Shown in pieces: positions 36,785 through 64,000 of a stretch of 64,000 nt of DNA (its first letter is position 1; each line of letters begins with the position of its first letter). This DNA is from Chloroflexota bacterium (GTDB taxonomy: Bacteria > Chloroflexota > Anaerolineae > Caldilineales > Caldilineaceae), in the NCBI GenBank assembly GCA_003451595.1, contig DMDA01000101.1, positions 67,531 to 131,530 of the forward strand. Reading direction: 5' to 3'. The notes below the pieces were generated by a model that saw only the letters and a program-made list of their open reading frames with translations, was not told the DNA's origin and did not search any database. The position numbers and the translations under genes were made by a program.

Positions 36785-36827
36785 CCTTGTGGCAAGTTAT
36801 GTCATGAGAGAGCGAATGCACCTCTCA

Positions 36828-40011: not shown

Positions 40012-40056
40012 GGTGTATCGCTTGCGGGGCGTTCACTGGTGATTAAGGAGCGATGC

Positions 40057-42857: not shown

Positions 42858-43736
42858 TTGCTTGGCCTGGCGGCTGGTGACGGCGTCGGCACGACCGTCG
42901 AATTCAAACCGCGCGGCACATTTGCACCGCTCACCGACATGGTGGGCGGGGGGCCGTTTGGCTTGCAGCCGGGCCAATGGACGGACGACACGTCGATGGC
43001 GCTCTGCCTCGGCTACAGCCTGGAGGAGCGCAACGGCTTCGACGCCCACGACCAGATGACGCGCGGCGTGCGCTGGTGGAAGGAAGGCTACCTGAGCAGC
43101 ACCGACGTCTGCTTCGACATCGGCGTCACCGTGGCGGGCGCGCTACACCGCTTTCAGCAGACCGGCGACCCATTTGCCGGTTCGACCGATCCGCACAAGG
43201 CGGGCAACGGCTGCATCATGCGCCTGGCGCCGGTGCCGATCTTCTATGCTGAGGACATCGACGCGGCGACGCACTACGCCGCAGAGAGCGCGCGCACCAC
43301 GCACGCCGCGCCAGAATGTCTAGACGCCAGCCGCCTCTTTGCGCGCATCCTCGTGCGTGCCCTGCGTGGCGACGACAAGCACACCGTGCTGCTCGGTGAC
43401 CGCGCCACCTTCACCGGCGAGCCCACGATCGAGGCAATTGCACGCGGCGACTACCGCAGCAAACACCAGGCGCAGATTCGCGGCTCCGGCTACGTCGTCG
43501 ACAGCCTGGAAGCCGCGCTCTGGTGTTTCGACCGCACCGACACCTTCGCCGACGCCGTGCTGCTTGCCGCCAACCTGGGCGACGACGCCGACACGACCGC
43601 TGCCGTCTGCGGACAAGTAGCCGGCGCGTTCTACGGCGAAGCGGGGATTCCGGCGGACTGGCGCGCCCGGCTGACGATGGGCGAGGAAATCGCGGCGCTG
43701 GCGGATCGGCTGTGTCGAGGCTACGGCGCAATGTGA
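42858..43736 (+). CDS. ADP-ribosylglycohydrolase family protein (start uncertain)
   Basis: LLGLAAGDGVGTTVEF near the N-terminus and GDDADTTAAVCGQVAGAFYG near the C-terminus are ARH hallmarks. The frame is open from 42807, but the only candidate starts are CTG 42822 and TTG 42858. Confidence 0.75.
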   Translation: MLGLAAGDGVGTTVEFKPRGTFAPLTDMVGGGPFGLQPGQWTDDTSMALCLGYSLEERNGFDAHDQMTRGVRWWKEGYLSSTDVCFDIGVTVAGALHRFQQTGDPFAGSTDPHKAGNGCIMRLAPVPIFYAEDIDAATHYAAESARTTHAAPECLDASRLFARILVRALRGDDKHTVLLGDRATFTGEPTIEAIARGDYRSKHQAQIRGSGYVVDSLEAALWCFDRTDTFADAVLLAANLGDDADTTAAVCGQVAGAFYGEAGIPADWRARLTMGEEIAALADRLCRGYGAM

Positions 43737-43751
43737 TAGGAATGCCGTGAT

Positions 43752-43764
43752 GCTGTGCTATACT
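43752..43764 (+). promoter_or_regulatory. TG-extended -10 element (gctgtgcTATACT) upstream of the BREX-like operon
   Basis: The 13-mer is identical to the -10 region of the sugar ABC promoter at 23182-23194. I saw no good -35. Confidence 0.45.
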
Positions 43765-43801
43765 GGTCATGCAACTACCTGGTGCAACCAAGACGCAAGT
43801 T

Positions 43802-43821
43802 CAGTTCTATCCAGTTCTATC
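43802..43821 (+). repeat. Perfect 2 x 10 bp tandem (cagttctatc) in the leader, abutting the RBS
   Basis: Copies at 43802-43811 and 43812-43821 are identical. RBS aaggaagga follows at 43822-43830. Confidence 0.8.
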
Positions 43822-43843
43822 AAGGAAGGAAACCTATCAGTTC

Positions 43844-45109
43844 ATGCCACTCACCGACCCGGCAGCGGGGCACAGGGAACGGCTCCGCCAGCGCTTTGCG
43901 GCAAACGAGACAGCGCTGAGCAACGCCGAACTGCTGGAACTGCTACTCACCTACGCGATTCCCCGGCGGGATGTTGCACCCCTGGCACGGCGCTTACTGG
44001 CGCACTACGGCAATCTGACAACGGTTCTGGCAGCAGATACCGCCGACCTGCTGACAATTGACGGGATGGGCGAACAGGCGACCCTGCTGTTGCGACTGGT
44101 GGGGACGCTCGCCGGTGCGCCATCACAACCGCACCCCATACAATTCCCGCTGATGGATGACCTTGAGATAGACCTCTCCTCTGCCAACACAACGGAGGAT
44201 GATGATCGCGGGGAATATAATGTTGCCGCTGCGCATCTTGAGGTGGTGGATCAAGAAAAGATTGATGGGGAAGACGAGAAAGGTGTACTGCGAGCGTTTG
44301 TAAATGATGAAGTGATCCATGCACAGACCTTGCTGCCGCAAGCGCATCGCTTTCAGACGCTGGCTGAGTTTCACTCCCACCTTTGCGCCAATCTGCCCTA
44401 CAATGCCGCCACAACGCGCGTGCGCCGCGCCAATTATCTCATCAAGCGGTTCTTTCCTGACGGCGTCTTGGCAGTCCCGCTGGTCGAGTTCTTGCGCTGC
44501 ACTCAAAGCACATCGGCGCGCGACAGCGCCATCTTCTACGAATTGCTGCGCAGCGAGCCGCTGCTCCGCATGGTTGCTGAAGAACTGGTCTGGCCCGCCC
44601 TGGCGGATGGCAGCGTGACGCGGGAGACAATGCGTGCATTCCTCCTCCAGCACCTGCCGGCGCTCAGCCCATCTTCGTTAAAAAACAGTCTGCGCTCGAT
44701 TCTGACGGCATATAGCGCACTGGGCGTCGGCGAGGTTCGTGACAATGTCTTGTTGGTGCATACCCATCCCGGCGACCTGGATGGCTTTGTCTATGCCTTT
44801 TGTGCTGAGTTCCCGACACCGGGCGTTTATCGATTCGAGGATATGGAGCAGGGGCTGCTGCACAAAGGATTACTGTGGGACAGGGCGTGGCTGCGACGCC
44901 AGCTGTATCATCTGGAACGACTCGGATTGCTTGCCAAAGTCAGTGAAATCGATACGCTGCGTCAGTTCACTGTGCGCTACAGCCGCGCTGGAACCTTGTC
45001 CGCCTACTTCGCACTTGACTCGCAGATGATCGCCATGCTGCGCGAGGAGCCGACGGCGAGCAACCTATACGTTGCGGATTCACCCCAACAGGATGAACAG
45101 CACCCATGA
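43844..45109 (+). CDS. brxA: Fusion protein: RadC-N-terminal-like helix-hairpin-helix module + acidic linker + BrxA-like (DUF1819-like) domain
   Basis: The N-terminus (HRERLRQRF...LSNAELLELLLTYAIPRRDVAPLARRLLAHYGNLTTVLAADTADLLTIDGMGEQ) matches the RadC N-terminal pattern, but no JAB/MPN domain follows. The C-terminal half (AATTRVRRANYLIKRF..., LSPSSLKNSLRSILTAYSALGV) resembles BrxA as I remember it. It takes the first-gene position and is ATGA-coupled to the next ORF. Confidence 0.55.
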   Translation: MPLTDPAAGHRERLRQRFAANETALSNAELLELLLTYAIPRRDVAPLARRLLAHYGNLTTVLAADTADLLTIDGMGEQATLLLRLVGTLAGAPSQPHPIQFPLMDDLEIDLSSANTTEDDDRGEYNVAAAHLEVVDQEKIDGEDEKGVLRAFVNDEVIHAQTLLPQAHRFQTLAEFHSHLCANLPYNAATTRVRRANYLIKRFFPDGVLAVPLVEFLRCTQSTSARDSAIFYELLRSEPLLRMVAEELVWPALADGSVTRETMRAFLLQHLPALSPSSLKNSLRSILTAYSALGVGEVRDNVLLVHTHPGDLDGFVYAFCAEFPTPGVYRFEDMEQGLLHKGLLWDRAWLRRQLYHLERLGLLAKVSEIDTLRQFTVRYSRAGTLSAYFALDSQMIAMLREEPTASNLYVADSPQQDEQHP

Positions 45110-45645
45110 AATTGACCGGCCCCGAGATCATCAGCACACTGCGCGAACAATTGACGTTTACGATTGGCCGGCATCTCTATGTGGTCTTGGGTTCATACGC
45201 GCAACTGCGCACATTTGAGCAGGTCGATCTGACTGCGGCCGTGACGCGTGACGGAACGCCCTTGCCGGCGCCGATCAACCTGAACCGTCGTCTGCTCGAC
45301 ACGATCGACGACGCAACGCTGCGCCGGCTGATGAGCGACGAAGCGCGCCTGCCCAAATCGGTGCGCGCCCAGCTCGACGCAGCGCTGCGCCAGCTCCTGG
45401 ACAGTCTCTTTCGCACCAATTCGCTCGTGATCCTCAAGCAGGTCGAAATCCTTTTCGCCTATGGGCTTGATCTGAGTGCGTTTCGCACGGCGGCCACCAA
45501 TCAAAATCACCTGGTGCTGCTCTTGCCTGGCGCCTGGGTCTCCGACCGCGTCCACCTCTTTCACGAGGCCGACGCACGCTTTCACCGCACGCTGCCTGAA
45601 AACCTGGTTGCCGAAAACCACATTTGGGAGTTGACGAATGGCTGA
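45106..45645 (+). CDS. brxB: BrxB-like protein (DUF1788-sized)
   Basis: 179 aa, translationally coupled on both sides, in the position between brxA and brxC. The C-terminal LLLPGAWVSDRVHLF resembles the BrxB PG...LF segment. The assignment rests mainly on context. Confidence 0.55.
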   Translation: MKLTGPEIISTLREQLTFTIGRHLYVVLGSYAQLRTFEQVDLTAAVTRDGTPLPAPINLNRRLLDTIDDATLRRLMSDEARLPKSVRAQLDAALRQLLDSLFRTNSLVILKQVEILFAYGLDLSAFRTAATNQNHLVLLLPGAWVSDRVHLFHEADARFHRTLPENLVAENHIWELTNG

Positions 45646-48600
45646 ACGTTTCACCGCAGGACTCTATCAGCGCAAATCGCTCGATCAGATCACCGCTGTC
45701 CCCGATTCCATCATCAGTGTCTACGTCATCGAAAAACATATCTGGGCGGATGATGGTGGTGAGCCGGGGCTGCTGCAGGCGCGCAAGGCGCGTCGCGCCA
45801 ATCCGCGCACGGTGGACGAATTCCTGATACAGCCGGTGCGTGGCTTTCTCAACGACATCTTTCGCCAGATGGCCGCTCCCTACGACCCGGCGCAGAAGGA
45901 ACGCGCCATCGGGCAAGGCTACTGGGTGCAGGCTGAGTTTGGCTCGGGCAAGTCGCACCTGCTTTCGTTCGTCGGTGCGTTGGCGCTGGGCGACGAGGCT
46001 GCGTGGAACATCGTCCGGCGCAAAGAACAGGACGCAGGTCAGGGCCGCCGCGAAAGCCTTTACAGCTTCTACGAAGAAGGACTTGCGCGTAAGCAGCAGA
46101 ACGGGAAGGGCATCCTGGTGGCGGTCAAAACCCTGGTCGGCGAAGGCGGCGGCGCCATTGGCATGGCGGAGCATACGCGCTCGTTGACAGAGTACATCCT
46201 CGACGCAGTGGCGGAGCAGTTCTTTGTCGAGACCGGGCGCGTGCTGCCGCTCTACCCGTCGCAGTTGCTGGTGGAACGTTTCCTGGCGACAGATGACCTG
46301 AACCGTTACCAACGCGACCTGGCCCGATTTCTGAAAGACCCTGCCTGGTTCGACGACGAAGAACAGCAGGAGCTTGCCGACTTCATGGCGGCAATGAAAT
46401 CCCCTGACCCGAACATCCAGCGCGATGTCGGCGAACGTCTCTGGCGTTTCTATGAGCAATATCTGCGCATCCGTCCCCAGATTCCCATGGAGGCGGAGCC
46501 GATTCTGGAGCACATGGTCAACCGCCTGCTCGACGAGGGCTATGCCGGGCTGTTGCTGATCCTGGATGAGATTTCGCTCTTCATGAAGGGACGCAGCGAC
46601 GCACAGCGCGTCGAAGATGAGAAGACCCTGGTGGTGCTCGCCAATCGTCTGGCTAAGGTCAAGCACCTGCCGGTCTGGGTGGTGTGCGCGGCGCAGGAGA
46701 AACTCGAGACCAAGATGGCCGGCGTCAAGAACATCCTGGCGCGTGAACGCCTCGACCCGGTGCCGCTGCTCAGCGACCCGGCGGATTACGCCACGATTGC
46801 GCTGCACCGCGTGCGCACCATCACCGAGCCGGGCGCCATCGACCCCTATTACGAAGACTACAAGCGCAGTTTCAGTTGGCCCCAGGCAATCGGAAAAGCG
46901 GAATTTGCCCGTTTCTTTCCGTTCTTCCCGCCCAGCCTCGACATCATGCGCGCCATCTCCTACAACCTGACGACAGTGCGGTCGGCGCTTTACTTCATGC
47001 TCGAAACGTTAAAAACGCAACGCAAGCGCCAGTCCCGAGAAGTGATCACGCTCTGGGCGCTCTTCGAGGACATCGTGAAATATGAGGAAGACCCATCGGG
47101 TACGACGCGCGGCGTTGCCAGCATCAAGGTCAAGTGGCCCGATGTCTGGCACGCCTATGAAACCGCGCGCGCCCAGCTCGACGCACAGGTCAGGGGGCCG
47201 CTCATGCTCTATCGTCACCGGGCGGACAAGATCATCAAGACGCTCTTTCTCTATCACATTGCCGACCGCGCGCCTAACGGACTCAGCGCCGAAGAGCTGA
47301 TGAACAGCGTTATGGAATGGCGCGACCACGACAAGGGACAGACGGCGGACCTGCAGGACAATCTTGACCACTACACGGTGTTGTGCGACCAGATCGCCCT
47401 GGAAATTGCCCAGGTGGAACGCGTCGGCGCCAACTATCGCTTCCGCGCCACCAGTGGCTACACCCAGCCGAGCGAGCATTTCCAGCGGGCGCGCGCCGAA
47501 GTCGAACAGAGCCAGCAGGAACAGCGCGTTGCCTGGGAAGCGCTGCTGGCGCTCGATGGCTGGGAAGTCTCGGCGCAATTGATGAAGTTGAACCTGGGAC
47601 AGGGCATCCGCTCCGTCTTTCGCGCCATCGCGCCCGCTGCACAGACCGATGTCACGATAAAATGGCACGGACGCGAGATCAGTGGGCGCGTCTTCATGCG
47701 CGACCTGTTGAGCATCGCACGCCAGAACCACATGCTGCCCTCGATCAACAGCACCGAAACCGGGCTTGATTTTGCCGTCTTTATTAGCTCCACGCCGGTG
47801 ACTGATGAGATCGCACAGTTGATCGCAGCCCGCCAGGAGCCACGCGCCATTTTCTGGGCGCCCGACCCCTTAAGTGCCAGCGAACGCGATCTTCTGATCG
47901 ATTTTGGCGCCTACCGTAAGCTGGTCGCCGAGTTTGCCGGTCGCGACTCGGAGGAAGCGCGCGCGGTCCTCGAATGGGTGCAGCATCGGCTGCGCGACCA
48001 GATGGGGTCGATCTATCGGATCGTACCCGGCGCTTACAGTCGCGGCGTCATGGCGGCGGTGAACCACCAGCGACTCGACATTACTGTCACCGGAGAACTG
48101 ACCGCTTTCTTGACGCCTGTCGTCGGTCAGGTGCTCGACAGCGTCTATATCAGCAGCGAGCTGGAATTCACGGCGCCGGCCCCCTTCAACGATGCCAACG
48201 CCATCAATGTCATCAACGGTATCGTCAAAGTCGGCGAGATCGAACGCGGCGCAAAACCGAACCGCGACATTTCCGCGGCGCAGAACTATGGCTTTGATCT
48301 GCGCATCATGCGCCGCCCACATGATCGCAAACTCGACCTGACCGACTGTCGCTACACGCGAGCGATCGCCACCTTCCTCGAAGATAAGCTGGGGGCGTCG
48401 GGCGCCGAAATGCCTGTCGTCACGCTCTACAAAAATTTCATGGGCATCGGCGGCCCCGGCGATGTGAACTATGGTCTCAGCAAACGCATGGTGCAGCTTT
48501 ACCTGCTTTGTCTGGTGCGTGAAGGCAAGGTGCGCGTTGGCCTCTCGCCCAGGGCGGCGCCGCTGGAGACGATCGACTATGGCAACATCGCTTCCATTGA

Positions 48601-49948
48601 CTTCAAGACCGCCGTGCTCGATGCGTTTGAGCGCGTGCAGCTGGTGGCCGCGCCGGAAGGGTGGGAATTGCTGGCGCCCTACGCTGCCGTCCTCCTCGAC
48701 GACCCATCCGTCACGACCATCAGCGATGAAGCCGACATCCAGGCTGTGATCCAACGCCTGTTGCGCCAGCGCGATACGGAACGGGCATCGCTGCGCAGCC
48801 TGACCGCCGAGCTGGCGCCGATCTTTGCCGAGCTTGGCTACAACGCCGCCGAGTTCAACGTGCGCCTTGCCCAATGGCAACGCTATCTCGATGCCCATGT
48901 CGATGTGGCGGATGCGATCACGGGGCTGCGTATTGCGCTCGACCGCGCCTTCGACTACGAAGTGTATGCGGGCGACCGCGTCGCCCCCGATGAAGTCGAC
49001 GATCTGAAGTTGCGCCGCGACGAACTGCGGCAGTTAGAGCAATTCGCCAGACATGGCAGTCAGCTCCGCGCCATTGCCCGGTATGTGCGCGCAGAATTGC
49101 CCACTGCCAGCGAGTTCGACGCGCTGCGCAATGCGTTCGCCGCTGCGCGCGCGGCGCTCGTCTCGCTGCCGACCCTCATCGCCAGCGAGGCGCGGCTGAC
49201 CAGCGAACTGCTCGACCCGATGCGCGAGGCCATCAGCAGCTATGCAGTGCGCTACTTGCAGCGCTTCGACCGCGTGACCGCGCGCGCCGAGGAGGTGCGC
49301 CAACTGCTGCACGCAGCCGAGCGCCTGCCAGACTTCGTGGTCCTGGAGACGCTGGCTGGCGTCACGCAGCTCGGCGCGGATGGCTTGCAGACTGTGCGCG
49401 CCTTTATCAACCGACAGCTTGACGACGCAGCAACGCTGAGACCGACGCGGATCACGCGCGGCGAAGCGGAGCGCGCCTTGAACGAGTGGCCGCAACCCTC
49501 TGGCTGCGAGATCACTCTAAGCAATGCCGACGAATGGATGGCGCGTCTCGACGCAGTTGCAGAGGAACTCGACGACCTGCTTCGGCAGAGCCTGCATGAG
49601 AAAGCGGCCGTGCTTGCCAGCAGCGCCCTGCGCGACCGCTTGCAGCAGCACACCGACGCGCCGTTCGTTCGCAGCCTGCTCGCGGCGCCGGACGCCGCCG
49701 CAGTTGCCGACGCGCTGCGCACCACTATCGGCGCAGCGAACAGCGCCGACCGTGCAGCGATGGCCGCCGCGCTGGCGCAGGCACTGCGCCAGGTTGTCGT
49801 GAAACGTCTGCGACTGGCAGACTTCAAGCCGACCCTGCGCACGCTCGAACGCACCGACATCGAGGACGTTGTCGCCGAATTTCGCACCTTCTTGACCAGC
49901 GCCATGACCGAAGATCGCGCAACGCACACTGTGCTCGAACTGGAGTAG
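45638..49948 (+). CDS. brxC: BrxC/PglY-type large P-loop ATPase
   Basis: 1436 aa with Walker A AEFGSGKSHLLSF near residue 100. Size and position are typical of BrxC. Confidence 0.8.
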   Translation: MAERFTAGLYQRKSLDQITAVPDSIISVYVIEKHIWADDGGEPGLLQARKARRANPRTVDEFLIQPVRGFLNDIFRQMAAPYDPAQKERAIGQGYWVQAEFGSGKSHLLSFVGALALGDEAAWNIVRRKEQDAGQGRRESLYSFYEEGLARKQQNGKGILVAVKTLVGEGGGAIGMAEHTRSLTEYILDAVAEQFFVETGRVLPLYPSQLLVERFLATDDLNRYQRDLARFLKDPAWFDDEEQQELADFMAAMKSPDPNIQRDVGERLWRFYEQYLRIRPQIPMEAEPILEHMVNRLLDEGYAGLLLILDEISLFMKGRSDAQRVEDEKTLVVLANRLAKVKHLPVWVVCAAQEKLETKMAGVKNILARERLDPVPLLSDPADYATIALHRVRTITEPGAIDPYYEDYKRSFSWPQAIGKAEFARFFPFFPPSLDIMRAISYNLTTVRSALYFMLETLKTQRKRQSREVITLWALFEDIVKYEEDPSGTTRGVASIKVKWPDVWHAYETARAQLDAQVRGPLMLYRHRADKIIKTLFLYHIADRAPNGLSAEELMNSVMEWRDHDKGQTADLQDNLDHYTVLCDQIALEIAQVERVGANYRFRATSGYTQPSEHFQRARAEVEQSQQEQRVAWEALLALDGWEVSAQLMKLNLGQGIRSVFRAIAPAAQTDVTIKWHGREISGRVFMRDLLSIARQNHMLPSINSTETGLDFAVFISSTPVTDEIAQLIAARQEPRAIFWAPDPLSASERDLLIDFGAYRKLVAEFAGRDSEEARAVLEWVQHRLRDQMGSIYRIVPGAYSRGVMAAVNHQRLDITVTGELTAFLTPVVGQVLDSVYISSELEFTAPAPFNDANAINVINGIVKVGEIERGAKPNRDISAAQNYGFDLRIMRRPHDRKLDLTDCRYTRAIATFLEDKLGASGAEMPVVTLYKNFMGIGGPGDVNYGLSKRMVQLYLLCLVREGKVRVGLSPRAAPLETIDYGNIASIDFKTAVLDAFERVQLVAAPEGWELLAPYAAVLLDDPSVTTISDEADIQAVIQRLLRQRDTERASLRSLTAELAPIFAELGYNAAEFNVRLAQWQRYLDAHVDVADAITGLRIALDRAFDYEVYAGDRVAPDEVDDLKLRRDELRQLEQFARHGSQLRAIARYVRAELPTASEFDALRNAFAAARAALVSLPTLIASEARLTSELLDPMREAISSYAVRYLQRFDRVTARAEEVRQLLHAAERLPDFVVLETLAGVTQLGADGLQTVRAFINRQLDDAATLRPTRITRGEAERALNEWPQPSGCEITLSNADEWMARLDAVAEELDDLLRQSLHEKAAVLASSALRDRLQQHTDAPFVRSLLAAPDAAAVADALRTTIGAANSADRAAMAAALAQALRQVVVKRLRLADFKPTLRTLERTDIEDVVAEFRTFLTSAMTEDRATHTVLELE

Positions 49949-49950
49949 CG

Positions 49951-52749
49951 ATGACCGCCACAATGCTGGAAGCATGGATTCTGGAGAAGATTGAGCCACA
50001 TCGCACCGCACCGTTGGTGATCGTGTGCGACCCGCAGCGCATGATTCAAAGCGGCGCCGTAGCGGTCGATGGCTGGGCGGAACGGCATGGCTTCACGGTG
50101 CTCTTCTGCACCGGTAACCTGGCGCTGCGCGAGATGTACGAGGCGATGCGCGACGACCCAGATGTGCGCACCCTGTTGGTCGACCGCAGCCGCACCCACG
50201 CCACAACGCCGCTCTTCTACCCCGATCTGGATGTTGCGGCTGGCCGGCGGCGCCAGTTGACGATAACCTTACGCGACTTTCTGATTGAGAAGACGGGCGA
50301 CCCGACTTGGCCGCAAGCTGTCAATATGCGCGAATACGCGCGCCTGCTACTCACCAATCTGCCCAACGTGCTCGCGGCGCACGCCCAGCTGCGCGCCGTG
50401 CGCGCTAGCGGTTTTTCGGACGCCGACCTGCACAAGATCATCATTGGGGCTGCGCTCGCCATCAACCCGTTCGGCAAGATCGCCGTCGGCGACATCCGGC
50501 GCATCGCACTGGAACATCACCATACGCTAGACGAACTCAAGCGCACCCTGCCGGAGGCAGCCATGGCAGCCTGGCGCAGTGCGCTGGCGAAGGTGCAAAA
50601 ACCGTTCTGTGACCTTCTGGATGGCGATGCCCCCACGATCCTGCGCGCCTTCATCCTGGCGGCACTGCTAAAACAACATGGACTTGACCATCGCCTGCTG
50701 TTGAGCAATCTCGATCCGCAGTTGCACCTCTACCGCGACATCGATCCCGCCTTCCTGGATGAAGCGCTGCACGACCAGCTCGACGCCAACCCCGATCGCG
50801 TCGTCGCCGATGTGCGTGCGGTGGAGAGCTATCTGCTGGAAAGCGCAAGCGCGTTCGTGCTCTTGCTGCGCGACCAACTTCAGCTCGACGATCCTGAACA
50901 CGCCCGCGCCGTGTTAGAGCGCGAACGTCTCTCACCACTGATCCGCAGCATGGCGCTCTTTTCGCTGTTGGTGGATCTGCTCACAACGCACAACCTCAAG
51001 TTTCATCGCGGCGTTCACCAACTGCTCCAGGCGCAAGACCGCCGCACCGACATGCTGGCGTTGCGCCGTCCTGACGAACAGTGGCTGACCCTGACCAACG
51101 TCTATGGCAAGGCAGTGACCACGTTCGAGGTGGTGACGCGGCTGGTGCAGAGCACCAGGAAACTCAAAGCCATAACGGACGACGCGCTGGAACTGGCGTT
51201 CTTTGACGAACTCTGGAACACACACCGGGTCAACCGCTTCGACTACTACGCCTCCGATCTGGAGCGCACGCTGCGCGTGGGCGCCTTGTTGCCGGTGACG
51301 CAGCGGCGGTTCTGGCCCGAGCTGGCGGTGCGCTGGGAGACTGCACGCCGCGAACTGAGCAGCGCACTCCAAGCCGCCAGCCAGATGATGGACGCAGTCA
51401 ACCATCGCTTTCAGAACCTTTACCGACGCCATTACGCCGATTGGATTCAACGCAGCGACGCCCCGGTCATCTTCACCCATCAGTTTCTCGACCGCATGCT
51501 CAAGGCGCACTGGGATGCACAGGGCGCGCGCCGAGCCGTCATCCTGATCTTCGACGGCATGCGCACCGACGCCTTCGACGAGTTTTTGCTACCCGTGCTC
51601 GAAGAGCGCTATCGAGTGATCGCCCGTCGTCCCGGCAGCGCCATTTTGCCGACAGAGACGCACCTGAGTCGCAAGGCAATTGCTGCCGGAACCCTGCCAG
51701 TACACTTCGCCGCCAACAGTGAGCTGGAACTGCTGAAACGCTGGCTTAAAACAACCTGGAATCTGTCGCCCACCTTCGAGGTGGTCAAGGACGACGACAC
51801 AGTGGCGTCGGGGATGACGGTGCGTTATCGTTCCGAGCGGCTGGAGTACATCATCTTCAACTTCACCGACAAGAATCTCCACAACAACGACCAGGAACTG
51901 GCGCTGATCTACGACACCACCGTGCGCGAAATCATCCGTCAAGACGTACGCGGCGTGCTGCGCGACCTGCCCGACGATGCCCTGATCTTCGTGACCAGCG
52001 ACCACGGCTTTGCGCCCGTCCCCCACAAAGCGCTGGCGCTGGATGCAAGCGTGGTGGCGGGGCCACAGGATGTCAAGTATCGCGTCGCGCGCACGCGCAA
52101 ACGCGTCCCCGATGCACAGCAGCCGTCCGTGGTGGAGTTCGACGCGCGCACGCTGGCGATCCCGCTGACCGGCGCCGCCGGCGCGCCCGTGCATTCGATC
52201 CTCTTTCCGCGCCCGGGGCTGGCGCTGCAGCGCCCCAACGCCGCGTTCCGCCCCGACCGCTACACCCACGGCGGGCTGAGCATGGCCGAATGCTTTGTCC
52301 CGATGGTCGTGCTGGGGCCGCCGGACGCCCAACAGCCGCTGCTGCGCATCGAGCGCTTCGTGCAGAGCGGCGCCCTGCGCGAAGGCGAGCCAGTCACGCT
52401 GGAGCTGGCGCTGGCGCCCATGCGCATCGGCGCGGAGGAGCAGGTCATCACGATTGCCTTCAGCACGCCAGATATTGCACCGCGGCGTGAGTTGTTCGCA
52501 GGCCGGCCCGTCACCTACAGCATGACCTGGATGCCGCCGCTGGGCGAGATCGACGACGCCGCACGCGCCTCTGGCGAGGTGCGCATCCCCGTGACCGCCA
52601 TCGTGACCTGGGAGGAAGGCGAACAGCGGCAGCGCGCAAGTCGCACGCTGGATGTTCGCGTCAAACTCGACCCCACGCGGCTGCGCCGCCGCGTCGATTC
52701 CAAGCTCGATCTGCTGGTGGGCAAGGTGCCGAAGGGACTGCAGGGATGA
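49951..52749 (+). CDS. pglZ: PglZ-domain (alkaline-phosphatase-fold) BREX protein
   Basis: 932 aa with PglZ-type motifs ILIFDGMRTDAF and FVTSDHGF. It starts 2 nt after the brxC stop. Confidence 0.85.
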   Translation: MTATMLEAWILEKIEPHRTAPLVIVCDPQRMIQSGAVAVDGWAERHGFTVLFCTGNLALREMYEAMRDDPDVRTLLVDRSRTHATTPLFYPDLDVAAGRRRQLTITLRDFLIEKTGDPTWPQAVNMREYARLLLTNLPNVLAAHAQLRAVRASGFSDADLHKIIIGAALAINPFGKIAVGDIRRIALEHHHTLDELKRTLPEAAMAAWRSALAKVQKPFCDLLDGDAPTILRAFILAALLKQHGLDHRLLLSNLDPQLHLYRDIDPAFLDEALHDQLDANPDRVVADVRAVESYLLESASAFVLLLRDQLQLDDPEHARAVLERERLSPLIRSMALFSLLVDLLTTHNLKFHRGVHQLLQAQDRRTDMLALRRPDEQWLTLTNVYGKAVTTFEVVTRLVQSTRKLKAITDDALELAFFDELWNTHRVNRFDYYASDLERTLRVGALLPVTQRRFWPELAVRWETARRELSSALQAASQMMDAVNHRFQNLYRRHYADWIQRSDAPVIFTHQFLDRMLKAHWDAQGARRAVILIFDGMRTDAFDEFLLPVLEERYRVIARRPGSAILPTETHLSRKAIAAGTLPVHFAANSELELLKRWLKTTWNLSPTFEVVKDDDTVASGMTVRYRSERLEYIIFNFTDKNLHNNDQELALIYDTTVREIIRQDVRGVLRDLPDDALIFVTSDHGFAPVPHKALALDASVVAGPQDVKYRVARTRKRVPDAQQPSVVEFDARTLAIPLTGAAGAPVHSILFPRPGLALQRPNAAFRPDRYTHGGLSMAECFVPMVVLGPPDAQQPLLRIERFVQSGALREGEPVTLELALAPMRIGAEEQVITIAFSTPDIAPRRELFAGRPVTYSMTWMPPLGEIDDAARASGEVRIPVTAIVTWEEGEQRQRASRTLDVRVKLDPTRLRRRVDSKLDLLVGKVPKGLQG

Positions 52750-52847
52750 GTTCGGCGATGCCCTTGGCGGCTTAGGCAGAAACGGCGTCGCCGTGTGGCA
52801 TGTGGAACAAGCACAGATGAATACGGCAAGCATTCAATGCGATTTGG

Positions 52848-52883
52848 CACGACTTCGTGGACTTCAGCTGAAGTCGTGTTTCT
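52848..52883 (+). terminator. Palindrome-rich terminator-like structure after pglZ
   Basis: cacgacttc (52848-52856) pairs with gaagtcgtg (52870-52878), followed by tttct. The perfect 16-bp palindrome gacttcagctgaagtc (52860-52875) is nested inside. Confidence 0.45.
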
Positions 52884-52937
52884 GCATACCGCGTGAACCG
52901 GCACCAGCCTCTGCACTATTGCGAAAAAAAGGCGAGG

Positions 52938-57335: not shown

Positions 57336-57414
57336 AGCCTTGCACTTTTAATCATATTTTCCAAGCCGGATTGTGGAGTCATTTCGACCGTTTGAATTAG
57401 GAGCATGCATCCCA

Positions 57415-59958
57415 ATGCCCAAACGCAAACCCACCACCCACCAACCCACCCTCTACCACAAACCCGTGCCCACCATGCCGGAGGGCTACTACTCCTCCGG
57501 CCCCAACCCGAACCTGGGCAAATTCGTCGCCGAGCACGCCAAGCCCTATGACCCGGCTACCGACACGTACAACGTGCCGCCCTTCGACAAGCCGATCACC
57601 ACGACCAAGGCGACGGCGATCTACAACATGCACACCTACTGGTCGAAGAAGCCCCACGACGCCATCCGCCAGTACATCCGCCACTACACCCAGCCGGGCG
57701 ACCTGGTGCTCGACCCCTTCTGCGGCAGCGGCGGCACGGCGCTGGCAGCGCTGATGGAGGGCCGCGCCGCCATCGCCATCGACCTCTCGCCGGCGGCCAC
57801 CTTCATTACCAAGAACTACTGCACGCCGGTGGACGTGGCTGAGCTGGAGCGCGCCTTTGCCGAGCTGGAGGCGAAGGTCAAGCCGGAGATGGAGTGGCTC
57901 TATGAGACGCGCTGCGACCGCTGCGACGGCCGCGCGCTGACGAGCTACACCGTCTATTCGCAGGTCTTTCGCTGTGAGCGCTGCCTGGCGGAGGTTCCGC
58001 TCTTCGACTGTGTGGAGGTGCAAAGCACGACGCTGGCCGGCAAGCCCAAGACGATCAGCGCCTGCCCGCACTGCTACGCCGCCGGCGTGGTCGAGGAGAT
58101 CAGCACGCGCAGCAGCGCCAAGCTGGGCGCCGTGCCCGTGCTGGTGAGCTACGAATGCCAGGAAGGCTGCAAGCCCAAGCGCGGCGAGCGCCGCCACAAT
58201 GACCCCGACGCCAAGAAGCGGCGCTTTTTCGAGGAATACGACCTGGGCAAGCTGGCGGAGATCGAGGCAAAACCGATCCCCTACTGGACGCCGCCGCACC
58301 GCATGATGAACGTCGCATCAGACACCGAACCGTGGGGCGACGAATGGCGACCGGGGCGCAACTTCCGCACGGTGGCGGAGTTGTTCACGAAGCGGAATTT
58401 GTGGGCGCTGGCGTTGTTGGCACATTTCATCCGTCGACTCAACTATAGTAATGGAAACGTGCAAGATCAGCTTCGATTGGCATTCAGCGGGACAATCTTG
58501 AATGTGTCAAGAATGCTCAAACAAAGTGAGCAGTGGGGCGGTGCGCTTCAGATGGGCACCTACTATATGCCGCAGATCAGCCGTGAGTCACCTGTGTTCA
58601 TTGGTTTTGACTACAAGTACCGAGATGTGAAACGGGGACTTGATGCTATTGGTTCGATTATTACAGAACCGAATGTTCTCATCTCCACTCAATCTGCGAC
58701 TGCACTCGGCGAGATCGATTCTGATAGCATCGACTACATATTCACCGACCCGCCCTACGCTGACAAAGTGCAGTATGGTGAGTTGAACTTTATTTGGGAA
58801 GCATGGCTCGACTTGCAGCCTCGCTGGCACGATGCCGAAATCATCGTAAATAAGACACGCGGTCTGTCTGACACCGAATGGGCAAACTCGATGAGTAACG
58901 CTCTGCGCGAGTGTTTCCGAGTATTGAAGCCTAATCGGTGGCTATCACTGTGCTATCACGATACCAGCGAGGGAACATGGGCATTAGTCCAAGATATAAT
59001 GGCTGACATAGGGTTTATTCCTGAAACTATCGGAGATACCCTGTTCATCGATACCGGTCAGAAATCCTACAATCAGTTGATGGCCGACAAAGTCACCAAG
59101 CGCGACCTGGTGATCAACTTCCGCAAGCCGCGCCCCGGCGAGACTGGCGCGGTCGTGCTCACCGGCGACGAGGATGCCGCCGCCTTCGCCGACAAGGCGC
59201 GCGCCATCCTGGTCGAGGCGCTGGAAGCGCACCCCGGCAGCCCCGCCGACCGCCTCTACGACATCCTCGTCTCGCGCATGGTGCGCCGCGGCGAGTTCGA
59301 GCGCCACAACTTCCAGGCGCTGCTCGAATCGGTGGCCGAACCGGTGCGCGAGGCGCTGATGCAGGAACTCTTCACCCCGCGCCCGCCTGATCTCTTTGGC
59401 CAGCACGCGCAGGTGCGCTGGTATCTGCGCGCCACCGCCGACGACCTGGACGACGCCGAACGCACGCGCGAGGAAGCCGCCGCCGCGCGGCTGGAAGCCT
59501 ATATGCGCAGCGCGATCGACTACACTGCGCCCGCCGGCGCCGACGCGGGCGTCCACTACTCCGACCTCTTCGAGCACTACCTGCCCGTCAAGGAAAAGCC
59601 GCGGCGTCTGCTGCAGGAGTGGCTGCCCGAATTCTTCTTCAAGACCGCCGACGGCGCCTGGCGGCCCCCGCTCACCGCCGAGGAGCGGGCGCAGAAGCAG
59701 GCATTGCGCGCCGGCGGCAGCCTGCGCCGCATCAAGCGCTTCGTCCACGCGCTGGAGCAGGGCGTCCCGCCCGCGCCGCGCGACCTGCCCGCGTCGCTCG
59801 CCGACGCCGCCGACTGGATCCGCCAGTGTCGTCGCGCCGGCCTCTATCGCTACGGGCGGGCGATCTACGAACGCGGCGGCTTCGACTTCGCCAACCTCCA
59901 CGCCGAGGCGCAGGCCGAGGTAGAGGAGGATTATCAGATCTGCGTACGGCGGAGCTAA
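57415..59958 (+). CDS. DNA methyltransferase with motif I before motif IV and an intervening Cys4 Zn-ribbon (PglXI-like/COG1743-like rather than canonical PglX)
   Basis: AdoMet motif VLDPFCGSGGTALAA (57712 onward), Cys clusters CDRCDG...CERC...CPHC (about 57913-58077), and catalytic FTDPPY (58741-58758). 847 aa. RBS aggag lies 12 nt before ATG 57415. Confidence 0.75.
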   Translation: MPKRKPTTHQPTLYHKPVPTMPEGYYSSGPNPNLGKFVAEHAKPYDPATDTYNVPPFDKPITTTKATAIYNMHTYWSKKPHDAIRQYIRHYTQPGDLVLDPFCGSGGTALAALMEGRAAIAIDLSPAATFITKNYCTPVDVAELERAFAELEAKVKPEMEWLYETRCDRCDGRALTSYTVYSQVFRCERCLAEVPLFDCVEVQSTTLAGKPKTISACPHCYAAGVVEEISTRSSAKLGAVPVLVSYECQEGCKPKRGERRHNDPDAKKRRFFEEYDLGKLAEIEAKPIPYWTPPHRMMNVASDTEPWGDEWRPGRNFRTVAELFTKRNLWALALLAHFIRRLNYSNGNVQDQLRLAFSGTILNVSRMLKQSEQWGGALQMGTYYMPQISRESPVFIGFDYKYRDVKRGLDAIGSIITEPNVLISTQSATALGEIDSDSIDYIFTDPPYADKVQYGELNFIWEAWLDLQPRWHDAEIIVNKTRGLSDTEWANSMSNALRECFRVLKPNRWLSLCYHDTSEGTWALVQDIMADIGFIPETIGDTLFIDTGQKSYNQLMADKVTKRDLVINFRKPRPGETGAVVLTGDEDAAAFADKARAILVEALEAHPGSPADRLYDILVSRMVRRGEFERHNFQALLESVAEPVREALMQELFTPRPPDLFGQHAQVRWYLRATADDLDDAERTREEAAAARLEAYMRSAIDYTAPAGADAGVHYSDLFEHYLPVKEKPRRLLQEWLPEFFFKTADGAWRPPLTAEERAQKQALRAGGSLRRIKRFVHALEQGVPPAPRDLPASLADAADWIRQCRRAGLYRYGRAIYERGGFDFANLHAEAQAEVEEDYQICVRRS

Positions 59959-59996
59959 GCAGCCTCATAACACCCGGTCTGATCGCTGCAAACGGT

Positions 59997-60044
59997 TTGC
60001 TTGCTTGCGCTCCGTTCCAGTATACTGCGTACAATGTGTACGCA
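59997..60044 (+). promoter_or_regulatory. TA promoter TTGCTT-N18-TATACT with overlapping operator palindrome
   Basis: ttgctt at 59997-60002 and tatact at 60021-60026. The perfect inverted repeat is tgcgtaca (60026-60033), atg, tgtacgca (60037-60044). RBS aggagga follows. Confidence 0.6.
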
Positions 60045-60062
60045 AATTGCCAGGAGGATGCC

Positions 60063-60356
60063 ATGACCATCACAACGTGGGACAGCCGGGCAGCACGCGA
60101 GAACTGGCGCAAGCTGCTCGATGCGGCGACAACCGGTCGCAGCGACATCGTCATCACGCGCCACGGCCAGCCGGCTGCGGCGCTGATCGCGTATGAGGAT
60201 TATCTGGCGCTGCAAGAGGAGCTGGACGAACTGCGCGCCGCGCGTCGCGCCGAAGAAACCGTGGCCGCCTGGCGCGCCGCCCCGTCCATGGCGCGCCCCT
60301 GGACGGAGGTCGAAGCCGAGCTGGTTGCCCGGGATCTGCTTGATGCCGAACCCTGA
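60063..60356 (+). CDS. Phd/YefM-family antitoxin
   Basis: 97 aa. The N-terminus (TWDSRAARENWRKLLDAATTGRSDIVITRHGQPAAALIAYEDYLAL) is typical of Phd/YefM. Confidence 0.8.
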   Translation: MTITTWDSRAARENWRKLLDAATTGRSDIVITRHGQPAAALIAYEDYLALQEELDELRAARRAEETVAAWRAAPSMARPWTEVEAELVARDLLDAEP

Positions 60357-60624
60357 GCCGCCGCGCTATGTCGTGCAGATCATCAAGCGCGAGCAGAAGG
60401 TGCTCGAACGCCTGCCGCGCGATCTCCTGCAGCGCATTCGGCGCGCGATCAACAGCCTGGCCGATCATCCGAGGCCAGCGGGCAGTAAAAAGCTGGCGGG
60501 CGTCGAGAATTACCACCGCCTGCGCGTCGGCGACTGGCGGATCACCTATGCGATCTTCGACGACACCCTGATTGTCCTAGTCGTCGAAGTCGCGCTGCAT
60601 GGGGATGCGTATCTGCATCTATGA
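60343..60624 (+). CDS. RelE/ParE-family toxin
   Basis: 93 aa, overlapping the antitoxin by 14 nt. KKLAGVENYHRLRVGDWRITYAIFDDTLIVLVVEV matches the RelE/ParE core. Confidence 0.8.
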   Translation: MPNPEPPRYVVQIIKREQKVLERLPRDLLQRIRRAINSLADHPRPAGSKKLAGVENYHRLRVGDWRITYAIFDDTLIVLVVEVALHGDAYLHL

Positions 60625-60727
60625 TGTCCTCACAGCCCGACATTCGCGACAGCGCCTGCCTGACCTGCGCTGCATGTCATCTGGCAAACGGTGTCTTCAA
60701 GTGTTGTAGCCTGACAGGAGCGTGTTC

Positions 60728-61843
60728 ATGCGGATTCGAGAAATAGAGTTTTCCGACTTTCGAGCCTTTCGCGGTCAGCGACGGGTGTCGTTTGTCGATC
60801 CGATCGGCGCCAGGCCGCGCCCGCTCACGATCCTGGCCGGTTCCAATGGCAGCGGCAAGACGACCATCTTCAACGTGATCGAAGCGCTGTTGGCATTCGT
60901 CTTGGAGCCAGATCAACCCGCAGCGCTGCTCGACGAGATCAGCGAAACAGGTCTCGTGTGCATGTCCGTCGAACTCGACCCGCTCGACATCGGCAACGGC
61001 AGTGACCAGCGTGCGCTGGTTGACCTGCCAGAGATCATGCATATTGCCGTCGGGCGTCGAGATCTGGCGCCGGCGCAGCCGGAGCAGGTCTGGCCCAATT
61101 TGTTCTGCCGGCTCGTGCAGCGCAATGTGCAGGGACGCCCCTTTGTGCGCAAGACGCCGCTGGCAGAGCGGCTGCGCCGCGCCGTTTCGCAGATGCATCA
61201 AGGGCAGCATCCGCTCTACGGCGGCTACCTCTATTTTCCGCATGATCGCCAGTTGCGCACATCGCACGGCGGGCCAATTGAACCCCCGCCGGAAGAACGT
61301 CCATGGCGCTTCCGGCTGGCGCCCAACGAACGCTGGCAGGGCAGCCTAGAACAACTGTGGGTCTGGCAGAACTATCTCGATCTGGAGCAGGGAAACCAGA
61401 AGGGGGAGCGCCTGGCGTCATTTGTCAAGACGTTGGAGTCTCTGCTCGGCGAGCATCGCCCGATCACGGTGCGCGAAGGCAGGGCGACGGTGCCGGCAGC
61501 CTGGAGCCGCGGCAGCGAAAAATCTGTGCTGTTGCGGCTGGATCAGTTGCCCTCCGGTGAACAGCAGTGTCTGCTCCTCTTTGGCGAGCTGGCACGGCGC
61601 CGGCGCGAAGGCGCCGTGATCGCCATCGACGAAGTGGAGAACAGCCTGCATCCCACGCTGCAGCGCCTGGTGATGTGGAATCTGACGCGAATCGCGCGTG
61701 AGTGGGATGCACAGGTGATTGTCGCCACGCATTCATGGGAGATCATCAACAGCGTGCGCAGCGACGCGTTTGTGAATCTGGACTATCCAGAGGATCGCTT
61801 CGATCTACCGGTCGCGGCAGTAGCTGCAGGAGTCGATGCGTGA
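60728..61843 (+). CDS. ariA: ABC/SMC-type ATPase, AriA-like (PARIS-like system component)
   Basis: IREIEFSDFRAFRG N-terminus, Walker A LAGSNGSGKTT, signature LPSGEQQ, Walker B VIAIDEVENSLHP, H-loop VATHS. RBS aggag lies before ATG 60728. Confidence 0.65.
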   Translation: MRIREIEFSDFRAFRGQRRVSFVDPIGARPRPLTILAGSNGSGKTTIFNVIEALLAFVLEPDQPAALLDEISETGLVCMSVELDPLDIGNGSDQRALVDLPEIMHIAVGRRDLAPAQPEQVWPNLFCRLVQRNVQGRPFVRKTPLAERLRRAVSQMHQGQHPLYGGYLYFPHDRQLRTSHGGPIEPPPEERPWRFRLAPNERWQGSLEQLWVWQNYLDLEQGNQKGERLASFVKTLESLLGEHRPITVREGRATVPAAWSRGSEKSVLLRLDQLPSGEQQCLLLFGELARRRREGAVIAIDEVENSLHPTLQRLVMWNLTRIAREWDAQVIVATHSWEIINSVRSDAFVNLDYPEDRFDLPVAAVAAGVDA

Positions 61844-62697
61844 GTCGCTACCCTTCGTTGACGGACATCGAAATCAGGTGGCGTTCTGCTGGCGGAGTCT
61901 GCGTCATCGTCGAAGGTGAGACGGAACAGGATGATGTCTGGTTCTACAACCATTGGTTTGGCCACCTGGCTCGCCAAGTCACATTCTTTGCCCAAGATGG
62001 TTGGGGCGCGGTTGTTACTGCTGTGACTGAGCTGCGCCAGCGGTATGGGAACGACAACGTGTTTGGCATCGTCGACCGTGACTTTGAGCCGGTCGTCGTG
62101 GTCGATCCACTTCCGTCCGACGGAATCCTGCGTACGTCCAAATACACGCTCGAGAATTATTTGCTCAATCCAGACTGCTGGGAGGCAGTTGTACGCCCCA
62201 AACTGCAGCGCGATCCTGTCGCCGGTTGGATGTCAAGAACCGAGATCGAGGCAACGCTGAAGTCGTACTACATGGAATGTTTGCAATTATCCGCGTTCAA
62301 CTGGGTTTTGCGTACAATCCGCGTGCAGATGCCCAATCTCTTTGTACAACTGCCGCTGGCGGAGCAGAGATATCGGGAACATCATGACTCTTTGCGTCAT
62401 GTCGGCGACGTATATACGCACTGGCAACGCGTGCAGACTTCGATTGGCGCGACGGACGATTTGGCAGATCTCTATCAGCAGCGACTCACGGCTCTACAGC
62501 GGATGTCAACCGAACAGTTGGCCGAAGTCGTCTCCGGGAAGTATGTATTCAACCTGCTGAGGAACAACTTTCCAGTACGCTATCATGGCAGAAAAGCCTG
62601 GGATAGCCTTCTGAGCGAGTATCTGTATCATTGTCCAGATGCACCTCACGACATCGCTGCTCTCGTGAACGTCATCTTGGCTGCGTCCAAACCATAA
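61840..62697 (+). CDS. ariB: DUF4435-type Toprim-like protein, AriB-like (PARIS-like system component)
   Basis: [26 protein letters not shown] and [10 protein letters not shown] match the DUF4435 motifs as I remember them. GTG 61840 overlaps the ATPase stop (GTGA). Confidence 0.65.
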
Positions 62698-62717
62698 TCC
62701 ATCTTCGAGTTCATCTG

Positions 62718-64000
62718 ATGAATCTCCACTTCAAGGAAATCTTCCGCGGCAAGGTCGTCAACAAGCGCCTCACCTTCAACACGGGTATGGATGAGTTCCC
62801 GCGCTATGTGCTCGAGTATCTGATCGACAACTATTGCCGTGAGGAGACCTTCGACGAGGATTTCGCCCAGGTCAAACGCCGGCTGCGCGAGAATTTCGTG
62901 CATGGCGCCGAGGCGGAGCGCATTCGCCACTATATCCGCGAGAACCGCCAGCACACGCTGATCGCCAGCTTGGAGGTGCGCCTGGTCGAAACCGAAGACA
63001 AGTATTGGGGCACGATCGGCGCCATCAACGAGAACTTTGTCAACGTGCCGGAAACGTTGGTGCGCCAGTATCCGATGTTGTTGGCGGGCGGGATGTGGGG
63101 CACGATCCAGCTCACCTACGACGAGACCGAGGTGCATAACAAGAAGATTCGTCCCTTTGTCGTCACCGACTTCACGCCCTTTCAGATTACCATGATCGAC
63201 CTGGGCGAGTTCCTGAGCAAGCGCCGCGCCTTCGGCGATGAGGAATGGCTGGACATCCTGGTCAACTCCTTTGGGCTTAACCCGGCGACCATGACGCGGC
63301 GCCAGAAGCTGATCTACATCAGCCGCGCCGTGCCGCTGGTCGAAGCCAACCACAACCTGATCGAGCTGGGACCGCGTGAGACCGGCAAGACCTATATCTT
63401 TCGCAACGCCTCCTACTACAGCCATGTGCTGTCGGGTGGCAAAGCCACGCCGGCCGGACTGTTCATCAACCTCAACAGCGGTCAGGTCGGTCTGGTGGGC
63501 ACGCGCGACGCCGTCGTCTTCGACGAGATCGCCAACACCGACTTCACCGACCCGCGGGCGATGGTCAGCATCATGCAGGGCTACATGCAGGATGCCAAGT
63601 TCAGTCGCGGCAAGAAAGAAATCCTGGCTTTTGGCTCGATCGTGCTGGTCGGCAACCTGGATGTGCAGGGCAGCCTGCCCCACGAGAAGTACTATCACCT
63701 CTTCGAGCCGCTGCCCAGTTTCCTGCAGGTCGAGGCGCTGATCGACCGCCTCCACTACTACCTGCCGGGGTGGGAAGCGCCCAAGATCGGGCCTGCTGCC
63801 GCCAGCCAGGACTACGGCTTCATCACCGACTATCTGGCGGAGATCATGCACGAACTGCGGCGCGTGGATGTGCTGAGCAAAGTCAAGGGGCGCTTCGAGC
63901 TGTTCGATGCCGCCGGCTCCACCCAGGGCATCACGGCGCGCGATGTGCGCGCCGTACACAAGACGCTCTCCGGGCTGCTCAAGCTGCTCTATCCGCACGG
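62718..64000 (+). CDS. brxL: BrxL, Lon-like BREX protein (3' end outside the window; not in the ORF track)
   Basis: My own translation from ATG 62718 gives [40 protein letters not shown]...[14 protein letters not shown]...[11 protein letters not shown]...[11 protein letters not shown]...[11 protein letters not shown]...[11 protein letters not shown]. These are all BrxL hallmarks. The frame stays open to nt 64000. Confidence 0.85.

Follow-up and report, generated by a model that had tools for sequence, protein, structure and literature searches.

A BREX-family locus of Caldilineaceae, probably from a distinct clade, combining a type-3-style methylase with BrxL and carrying other defense genes on both sides of the methylase

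The last third of a 64,000-nucleotide stretch of contig DMDA01000101.1 (assembly GCA_003451595.1; Chloroflexota, Caldilineaceae), hereafter the window, holds a locus that resembles a bacteriophage exclusion (BREX) system, and the question it raises is whether the locus is a hybrid BREX subtype or a BREX scaffold that has captured other immune genes. An initial annotation, made from the sequence alone, had offered these as alternatives. We find that both hold: the locus belongs to a conserved family of mixed type, and the cargo at its junctions varies among relatives. Type 1 BREX is composed of brxA-brxB-brxC-pglX-pglZ-brxL, and type 3 of brxF, brxC, pglXI, brxHII, pglZ, and brxA. The pairing in this locus of a type-3-style methylase with BrxA, BrxB, BrxC, PglZ, and BrxL is absent from the classifications we searched; nested accessory defenses in BREX loci are already known. 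We consider it probable that the locus is one complete BREX-family defense system of a distinct and widespread clade, placed in no published classification that we found, with cargo at both junctions flanking the methylase.

Twelve genes, all on the + strand, fill the window from 43.8 kb to its end. Six of them make up the BREX core, namely a helix-hairpin-helix (HhH)-BrxA fusion, a BrxB-like protein, BrxC, PglZ, the methylase, and BrxL (A, B, C, Z, X, and L, respectively). The cargo forms three modules: Avs2 between pglZ and the methylase gene, and a Phd/ParE pair and an AriA/AriB-like pair between the methylase gene and brxL. The four coupled, co-directional open reading frames (ORFs) from which the locus was first recognized were all found with the overlaps and the gap described for them. 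The A ORF (43769-45109) overlaps B (45106-45645) by ATGA at 45106-45109, an 8-nt overlap at 45638-45645 joins B to C (45638-49948), and a 2-nt gap at 49949-49950 separates C from Z (49951-52749). The start first assigned to the locus, 43752, was incorrect in that it lies before the first ORF; the public gene call for brxA covers 43844-45109 (421 aa), and the frame is open from the ATG at 43769 (446 aa). The public gene calls used here come from an exact-protein look-up, which matched the window to a 176.9-kb contig of JGI metagenome 3300000482 ("Lynggard") and to contig DURX01000072 of GCA_012840685.1. The motifs AEFGSGKSHLL, ILIFDGMRTDAF, FVTSDHGF, and DPPY with its CxxC pairs were all located in the proteins to which they had been attributed.

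Profile searches, which had been proposed as a check, assigned BrxC, PglZ, and BrxL, but they did not assign BrxA or BrxB on the window proteins. The 1436-aa P-loop protein, whose Walker A motif lies inside AEFGSGKSHLL (residues 99-109), is BrxC by its match to Pfam PF19557 (DUF6079, alias BrxC-PglY_N) at 35.6 bits, above the cutoff of 23; in a recent survey, every BrxC ATPase has PF19557 as its top match. It was also 24% identical over 958 aa (E 2e-42) to a haloarchaeal BrxC-like protein encoded in a BrxA/PglZ locus. For BrxC alone, the sequence profile had no match in the PDB. PglZ (932 aa) has an alkaline-phosphatase-fold domain at about residues 455-790, flanked by N- and C-terminal extensions, with ILIFDGMRTDAF at residues 531-542 and FVTSDHGF at 680-687. 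Its assignment was upheld by Pfam PglZ, which it passed narrowly (28.6 bits, cutoff 25), and by PADLOC PglZ (3e-13). The best NCBIfam match was BREX-3 PglZ, below its cutoff (61.7 bits versus 250), and the nearest solved relatives by sequence profile were PorX PglZ domains. The arrangement common to BREX systems, a gene for an alkaline-phosphatase-fold PglZ beside one for a large BrxC/PglY P-loop ATPase, is present here with 2 nt between the two genes. The ORF at the window end (62718-64000), described as BrxL-like, is indeed BrxL. The window cuts it after 427 codons, within which it matched Pfam BrxL_N and BrxL_ATPase and PADLOC BrxL (437 bits, 1.9e-131); the complete protein of 676 aa on the source contig also contains Lon_C and scored 460 bits against TIGR02688, above the cutoff of 329.

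The methylase gene (57415-59958) encodes 847 aa from the ATG at 57415, which is also the public-call start, and its product is an N6-adenine DNA methyltransferase of the PglXI/BrxXI kind. From motif I (DPFCGSGGT) the protein continues through a Zn-finger insert to motif IV (DPPY) and then a long region at the C-terminus. The PADLOC PglX/PglXI model matched at 4.4e-106 (354 bits) and Pfam N6_N4_Mtase at 2.4e-19; the NCBIfam DUF1156 anti-phage model gave 32.8 bits, far under its cutoff. In an alignment of 14 homologues, motifs I and IV were nearly invariant and the eight Cys between them were almost fully conserved. The profile matches and the alignment together confirm the earlier description of an 847-aa Zn-ribbon DPPY enzyme that is not of the PglX type. 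Type-3 BrxXI and BREX-related (BR) methylases are described as having a nested domain for target recognition (TRD) that carries a 4-Cys Zn finger, and the Cys insert between motif I and DPPY agrees with this BrxXI architecture. BREX loci include a DNA-modification gene, either for an adenine methylase or, in type 4, for a PAPS reductase; here that gene is the methylase, which has motifs I and IV conserved and a counterpart in every related locus. In one Anaerolineaceae metagenome-assembled genome (MAG; PABH01000069, 4816-9923), two tandem PglXI-type methylase genes, which share 54% and 58% identity with the window gene, lie between brxC and pglZ, and a 2.9-kb insert lies between pglZ and brxL.

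One explanation of these identities is that the locus is an ordinary type-1 or type-3 BREX, odd merely through divergence and inserted genes, and not a separate subtype. The locus does have the gene composition of type 1, sharing its six roles, its tight A-B-C block, and a Lon-like BrxL, and the commonest gene order of the family is collinear with type 1. However, the type-1 PglX is an Eco57I-like enzyme of about 1200 aa with a C-terminal TRD, whereas the methylase here is an N6_N4/PglXI enzyme of about 850 aa with the TRD between motifs I and IV. In addition, the BrxA of the family bears an N-terminal HhH, the type-1 BrxA, BrxB, and PglZ profiles match barely or not at all, and pglZ precedes the methylase gene in the window. 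Type 3 shares the kind of methylase, with its nested TRD and Cys4 Zn finger, and the best curated matches of the methylase, of PglZ (BREX-3 PglZ), and of B (BrxF) are all type-3 models, although all are weak. In their profile matches, X, A, B, and the catalytic domain of PglZ resemble type-3-like systems more closely than type 1. The differences from type 3 lie in gene order, in the lack of the BrxHII helicase, with BrxL standing at that end in related loci, and in PglZ, which has 932 aa and a C-terminal region here versus a model length of 642 and type-3 proteins reported without C-terminal domains. No helicase domain was detected in any of the twelve locus genes by Pfam, PADLOC, and NCBIfam profile searches. 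A recent survey restricts BrxL to types 1 and 4, reporting none in types 2 and 3, and finds BrxHII in only 77% of type-3 loci. Loci similar to this one could already be counted within that type-3 set. When the window PglZ was compared with 1.84 billion representative proteins, 431 had E<=1e-3 and, of these, 90 reached E<=1e-30, a small set that suggests a discrete, divergent clade. We regard the ordinary-BREX explanation as unlikely, and a type-3-like core with BrxL replacing BrxHII may be the better description of the family.

The products of the first two genes had been called a BrxA-like fusion and a BrxB-sized protein, and both descriptions are supported, mainly by predicted structure. The A protein consists of an N-terminal RadC-N/HhH domain, a disordered linker, and a C-terminal BrxA-like DNA-binding domain, and it matched Pfam UPF0758_N at 1.4e-8. 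We found 497 homologues of A, one of which carries the NCBI name "DUF1819 family protein"; all 42 that were sampled matched the RadC-N/HhH family, and 12 of the 42 matched Pfam BrxA. An AlphaFold (AF2) model from 42 sequences (predicted local distance difference test, pLDDT, 84) predicted the HhH, the disordered linker, and a helical/winged-helix C-terminal domain. The top PDB matches of this model in Foldseek were SspB (6lb9 and 6juf), BrxA (7zge_A; probability 1.0, template-modeling score normalized to the target, TM-target, 0.65), and 3bhw, and its N-terminus matched the Hef HhH domain. The B protein (179 aa) had no Pfam or PADLOC match and a faint one to NCBIfam BrxF (0.0097). It lacks a Walker A motif, which fits the published "inactive STAND" description of BrxB and BrxF, and we list it as a putative BrxB/BrxF-like inactive P-loop protein (iSTAND-type). 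The two best Foldseek matches of its AF2 model (pLDDT 91.7) were to 9zll, in chains G and E (E 1.5e-3, probability 1.0, TM 0.49); this entry is an Acinetobacter BrxC-BrxB-PglZ complex, and searching the PDB with canonical BrxB confirmed the two chains as BrxB (DUF1788). Pfam searches of 46 B homologues gave a single BrxB match, at E 0.2, and when the A and B family sequence profiles were searched against the PDB, the sole match was the Hef HhH domain, with no match to BrxA or BrxB.

Two observations concern the variability of A. Between the window and its closest relative (466-1698 of locus L005), A is 53% identical with a ratio of nonsynonymous to synonymous substitution rates (dN/dS) of 0.22, and BrxB, BrxC, and PglZ are 82-85% identical; the fast divergence of A fits the reported rapid evolution of BREX DNA-binding and sensor parts. 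In a branch of Planctomycetota and Acidobacteriota, the HhH N-terminus of BrxA is swapped for a different helical N-terminal region.

Related loci were collected by exact-protein look-up and from a scan in which each species was represented by one genome, and the window proteins were mapped onto them by tblastn. More than 120 clusters of full-length PglZ homologues were found, at 43-82% identity. A, B, C, X, Z, and L co-occurred in every sufficiently long related locus (approximately 27 loci) from at least 4 phyla, in MAGs labeled Anaerolineae, Caldilineaceae, other Chloroflexota, Planctomycetota (Isosphaeraceae and Gemmataceae), Terriglobia, Myxococcales, and Alcaligenaceae; protein accessions of the family include MDD5368141.1, MEI7846988.1, and HOU13762.1. 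The proposed comparison of synteny with related genomes thus showed that the six core genes travel together. The A-B-C block is tight throughout the family, with gaps of at most about 190 nt. The commonest order, seen or implied in about 22 loci, is A-B-C-X-Z-L, in which the gap between Z and L is usually 8-20 nt. The order A-B-C-Z-X-L was found in 5 of the approximately 27 loci: the window, the relative with 82% identity (L004-L007), L008, L009, and L020. The observation that pglZ precedes the methyltransferase gene therefore stands for the window but not as a trait of the family, since the commonest order is the other one. In a neighbor-joining tree of PglZ, A-B-C-Z-X-L was limited to a Chloroflexota-associated branch that also holds A-B-C-X-Z-L loci, and it is probably a minority, derived order. 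A distant locus in a Candidatus Aerophobetes MAG (JAYEHT010000115) has the order C-X-Z-L, with a methylase 30% and a BrxL 46% identical to those of the window; this composition indicates that a PglXI-type methylase is combined with BrxL beyond the main clade as well.

These loci also bear on whether the window holds two unrelated units, a methylase-less A-B-C-PglZ module lying beside an orphan methylase and a BrxL from other systems. The layout of the window lends itself to such a reading, as 4.6 kb and 2.8 kb of foreign genes part its halves, and translational coupling extends over A-B-C-Z, with X and L each on its own. However, wherever a related locus is long enough to judge, A-B-C-Z comes with both X and L, across several phyla, and X or L often lies 2-20 nt from the PglZ gene. 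BrxL is 73-90% identical across the family, which fits co-inheritance. We consider the two-unit explanation extremely improbable.

Long, variable gaps of 0.6-4.6 kb always flank X in the family, falling at C/X and X/Z in A-B-C-X-Z-L loci and at Z/X and X/L in A-B-C-Z-X-L loci. Their contents differ from locus to locus and include GmrSD_N (in a GmrSD protein carried by relative L001), VapBC-like pairs, UPF0175/DUF3368, DUF433/DUF5615, HicB, AbiEii, an ATPase_2-DUF234-Mrr protein, an IS200-like transposase, and OLD-ABC ATPase pairs; inspection of translations also identified a serine-recombinase-like ORF in the cargo of a related locus. At the junction where the window carries Avs2, the closest relative (PglZ 82% identical) has a 3.65-kb insert that contains DUF433/DUF5615 and an ABC ATPase paired with a protein of 262 aa, together with two small ORFs. 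From these data, recombination in the operon seems to be concentrated at the methylase gene and the stretches on either side of it.

Three modules had been said to separate pglZ from brxL in the window: a giant nuclease-NTPase, a Phd/RelE pair, and an AriA/AriB-like pair. The giant proved to be Avs2 and the AriA/AriB-like pair stood, but the toxin is ParE, of the RelE/ParE superfamily, and not RelE. Avs2 (AVAST type 2 STAND NTPase with an N-terminal nuclease; 52944-57335 from the public gene-call start) is a full-length family match, with 1376 bits against the NCBIfam Avs2 equivalog (cutoff 1000) and 1652 bits against PADLOC Avs2. It was not found at the pglZ/methylase junction of any related locus. 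Its GC content at third codon positions (GC3) is 0.51, versus 0.77-0.81 in the flanking BREX genes, and the GC3 of the AriB-like gene is also low at 0.59; the low GC of the two suggests that they were acquired recently and separately. Over the longest Avs2 ORF (52893-57335), total GC is 0.516, far under that of all its surroundings.

The phd/yefM-family antitoxin gene (60063-60356, 97 aa) matched Pfam PhdYeFM_antitox at 1.1e-13 and NCBIfam phd_fam above cutoff. It overlaps by 14 nt the downstream gene for the ParE-family toxin (60343-60624, 93 aa; Pfam ParE_toxin 36.3 bits, cutoff 23), an overlap of antitoxin and ParE/RelE-fold toxin genes that is typical of a type II Phd/ParE pair. Direct reading of the sequence upstream of phd showed, at 60026-60044, a perfect inverted repeat of 8 bp, TGCGTACA-ATG-TGTACGCA; a TATACT -10-like hexamer lies on one side of it and the phd ribosome-binding site, AGGAGG, on the other. 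This palindrome looks like a candidate autoregulatory operator of the toxin-antitoxin pair. The AriA-like OLD-family ABC ATPase (60728-61843, 371 aa, with the public-call start 6 nt after the longest-ORF start) matched Pfam AAA_21 and AAA_15 and PADLOC AriA (9e-25), and its length is close to that of the AAA_15 domain model. Overlapping its gene by 4 nt is that of the AriB-like DUF4435 protein (61840-62697, 285 aa; Pfam DUF4435 5e-10, PADLOC AriB 1.4e-10), a family that is the TOPRIM nuclease in PARIS. The adjoining AAA_15/AAA_21 ABC ATPase and DUF4435/TOPRIM protein agree with PARIS in their domains and constitute a PARIS-like gene pair.

The number of insertions raises the further question of whether the window preserves a decaying BREX locus, split and inactivated one insertion after another. 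Three insertions do break an operon that is compact in relatives, and the scan for internal promoters gave none for either X or L. However, all of the cargo is co-directional with the core and compatible with read-through transcription, and the same split order occurs in relatives 53-82% identical, each with different cargo. The six core ORFs are full length relative to their homologues with their catalytic motifs conserved, and comparison with the closest relative gave dN/dS values of 0.11-0.12 for B, C, and Z (0.11 for C), indicating purifying selection. Decay is in our view very unlikely, and the locus is apparently functional, to judge from its sequence.

If it functions as do type-1 BREX and MANTIS, the BrxC ATPase together with BrxA and BrxB would load the methylase, and an asymmetric host motif would be hemimethylated. 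Unmethylated incoming DNA would then be sensed and either blocked or cut by PglZ with BrxL. Avs2 would act on its own, triggered by terminase or portal-type proteins of phages. For the PARIS-like pair, the trigger may be Ocr-like anti-restriction proteins; these also inhibit BREX, and immunity would then be layered. In MANTIS, a nested-TRD methylase requires an ORC/Cdc6-type ATPase for DNA loading and hemimethylates asymmetric 6-bp sites. MANTIS (Hma/Gao_RL) and BR types 1-3 are DUF499-centred systems, and they share with this locus the nested-TRD Zn-finger adenine methylase and an ATPase of the ORC/Cdc6 clade. In contrast, the ATPase here matches DUF6079 with no DUF499 match, no helicase-nuclease effector is present, and the genes of the locus include those for a BrxA-like protein, BrxL, and a long PglZ of several domains. 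The HerA/FtsK "BRC" system, which is also rich in Anaerolineae, was considered and rejected, as the locus is without HerA, GNAT, TGT, and DUF4007.

The nearest annotated relative that we found outside the family is on a Halorarius halobius plasmid (NZ_CP101162, 14184-25420), where the genes run methyltransferase, BrxA family, a 173-aa protein, a 1301-aa ATPase, PglZ, and an Mre11-like phosphoesterase. Its methylase is 28% identical to X, its counterparts of A and B were matched by hhalign with probabilities of 98% and 95%, its ATPase is the BrxC-like protein aligned above, and its PglZ is homologous. It differs in having no BrxL, in gene order, in a PglZ of 726 aa, and in a BrxA without HhH. 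BrxHII is likewise missing from the plasmid locus, a further BREX-like operon of non-canonical form, whose proteins all fall short of the curated NCBIfam cutoffs for BREX.

With respect to embedded defenses, GmrSD/BrxU in type 1 and PARIS-like OLD-ABC/TOPRIM pairs have been reported within BREX loci, and the PARIS-like pair of the window and the GmrSD of the relative are module types of that kind. According to PMC12839542, embedded PARIS and GmrSD modules are recurrent in BREX loci, and Ocr inhibits BREX and triggers PARIS. The family differs in that its cargo clusters at two methylase junctions, changes between close relatives, and counts among its members an Avs2 STAND protein as well as toxin-antitoxin pairs of type II.

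Several results weigh against reading the locus as a complete system of a distinct clade with captured cargo. The standard Pfam and PADLOC profiles made no BrxA or BrxB call on the window A and B. Foldseek scores for the two models were modest (E 1.5e-3 and 1.9e-2, TM 0.49-0.65), and hhalign of the A and B families against a single Haloarcula (canonical type-1) BrxA or BrxB gave probabilities below 1%; single-sequence templates are weak in hhalign, and this negative does not exclude homology. Searches of 36-64 kb for direct and inverted repeats showed none of the three inserts (Avs2, the toxin-antitoxin pair, and AriAB) to be bordered by target-site duplications or terminal repeats, and the window contains no integrase or recombinase gene that would explain the insertions. 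Scans for internal promoters and terminators gave none that were convincing, with counts at or below shuffled expectation; a weak hairpin at 52860-52875, 3' of pglZ, was the sole candidate of the terminator scan. The activity, the target motif, the roles of the parts, and every biochemical step are drawn by analogy with other systems. Finally, the placement of the arrangement outside the six described BREX types, as first proposed, agrees with the literature searched, where no matching classification was found; that literature was a limited set of papers and the main text of one survey, in which there was no description of a PglXI-type methylase with BrxL or of an HhH-BrxA fusion. The three accessions of the family listed above were absent from the text-readable supplements of PMC12839542, which do not include its Supplementary Data S1 locus table. 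We nevertheless retain as probable the reading of one complete BREX-family system of a distinct clade. A bolder proposal, that the family is an undescribed BREX subtype ("type 7") with a type-3-derived core using BrxL instead of BrxHII and a relocatable methylase cassette whose flanks are dedicated landing sites for interchangeable back-up defenses, is tentative, and we hold it as possible but somewhat short of probable.

Other genes near the core were also examined. Upstream of brxA are a 946-aa HTH(XRE)-NB-ARC/STAND-TPR protein (39937-42777, +) and an ADP-ribosylglycohydrolase (42858-43736, +) resembling the Tri1 ADP-ribosylarginine hydrolase (NCBIfam 322 bits, cutoff 490). Both were rejected as core parts, having no counterparts beside related BREX loci, and they may be further defense-island cargo or regulators. 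On the source contig, brxL is followed by one small unconserved ORF and then by unrelated genes; small ORFs 3' of brxL were likewise rejected as core parts, being without counterparts in related loci. GC falls to 0.55-0.58 between 36000 and 39900, where ORFs 36497-37165 (+) and 38349-39320 (-) had no Pfam or PADLOC match, and this region may be the upstream edge of a genomic island with defense genes. No tRNA gene was found in the window.

The mechanism of BREX is unsettled, and classification steers which components are thought to cooperate. If the family is real, the type of methylase and the "motor" (BrxL or BrxHII) assort independently, and its members would be natural chimeras for testing ATPase-dependent methylase loading, as shown for MANTIS, inside a PglZ/BrxL system. 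If the "type 7" proposal is true, the family would also provide a natural series of loci in which to ask which BREX partners a PglXI-type methylase needs and whether BrxL and BrxHII can functionally replace each other. Current PADLOC, Pfam, and NCBIfam profiles see the system in part, with PglZ weak, BrxC marginal, and BrxA and BrxB missed, so the family is probably under-counted in the Chloroflexota, Planctomycetota, and Acidobacteriota of wastewater, soil, and sediment. The nesting of defenses is already documented for BREX; these are new instances and not a new principle, and BREX biology is not overturned. The variable cargo beside the methylase is a clean case of defense-module turnover at fixed junctions within an operon, and the presence beside BREX of a PARIS-like sensor for anti-BREX proteins suggests that selection has favored layering.

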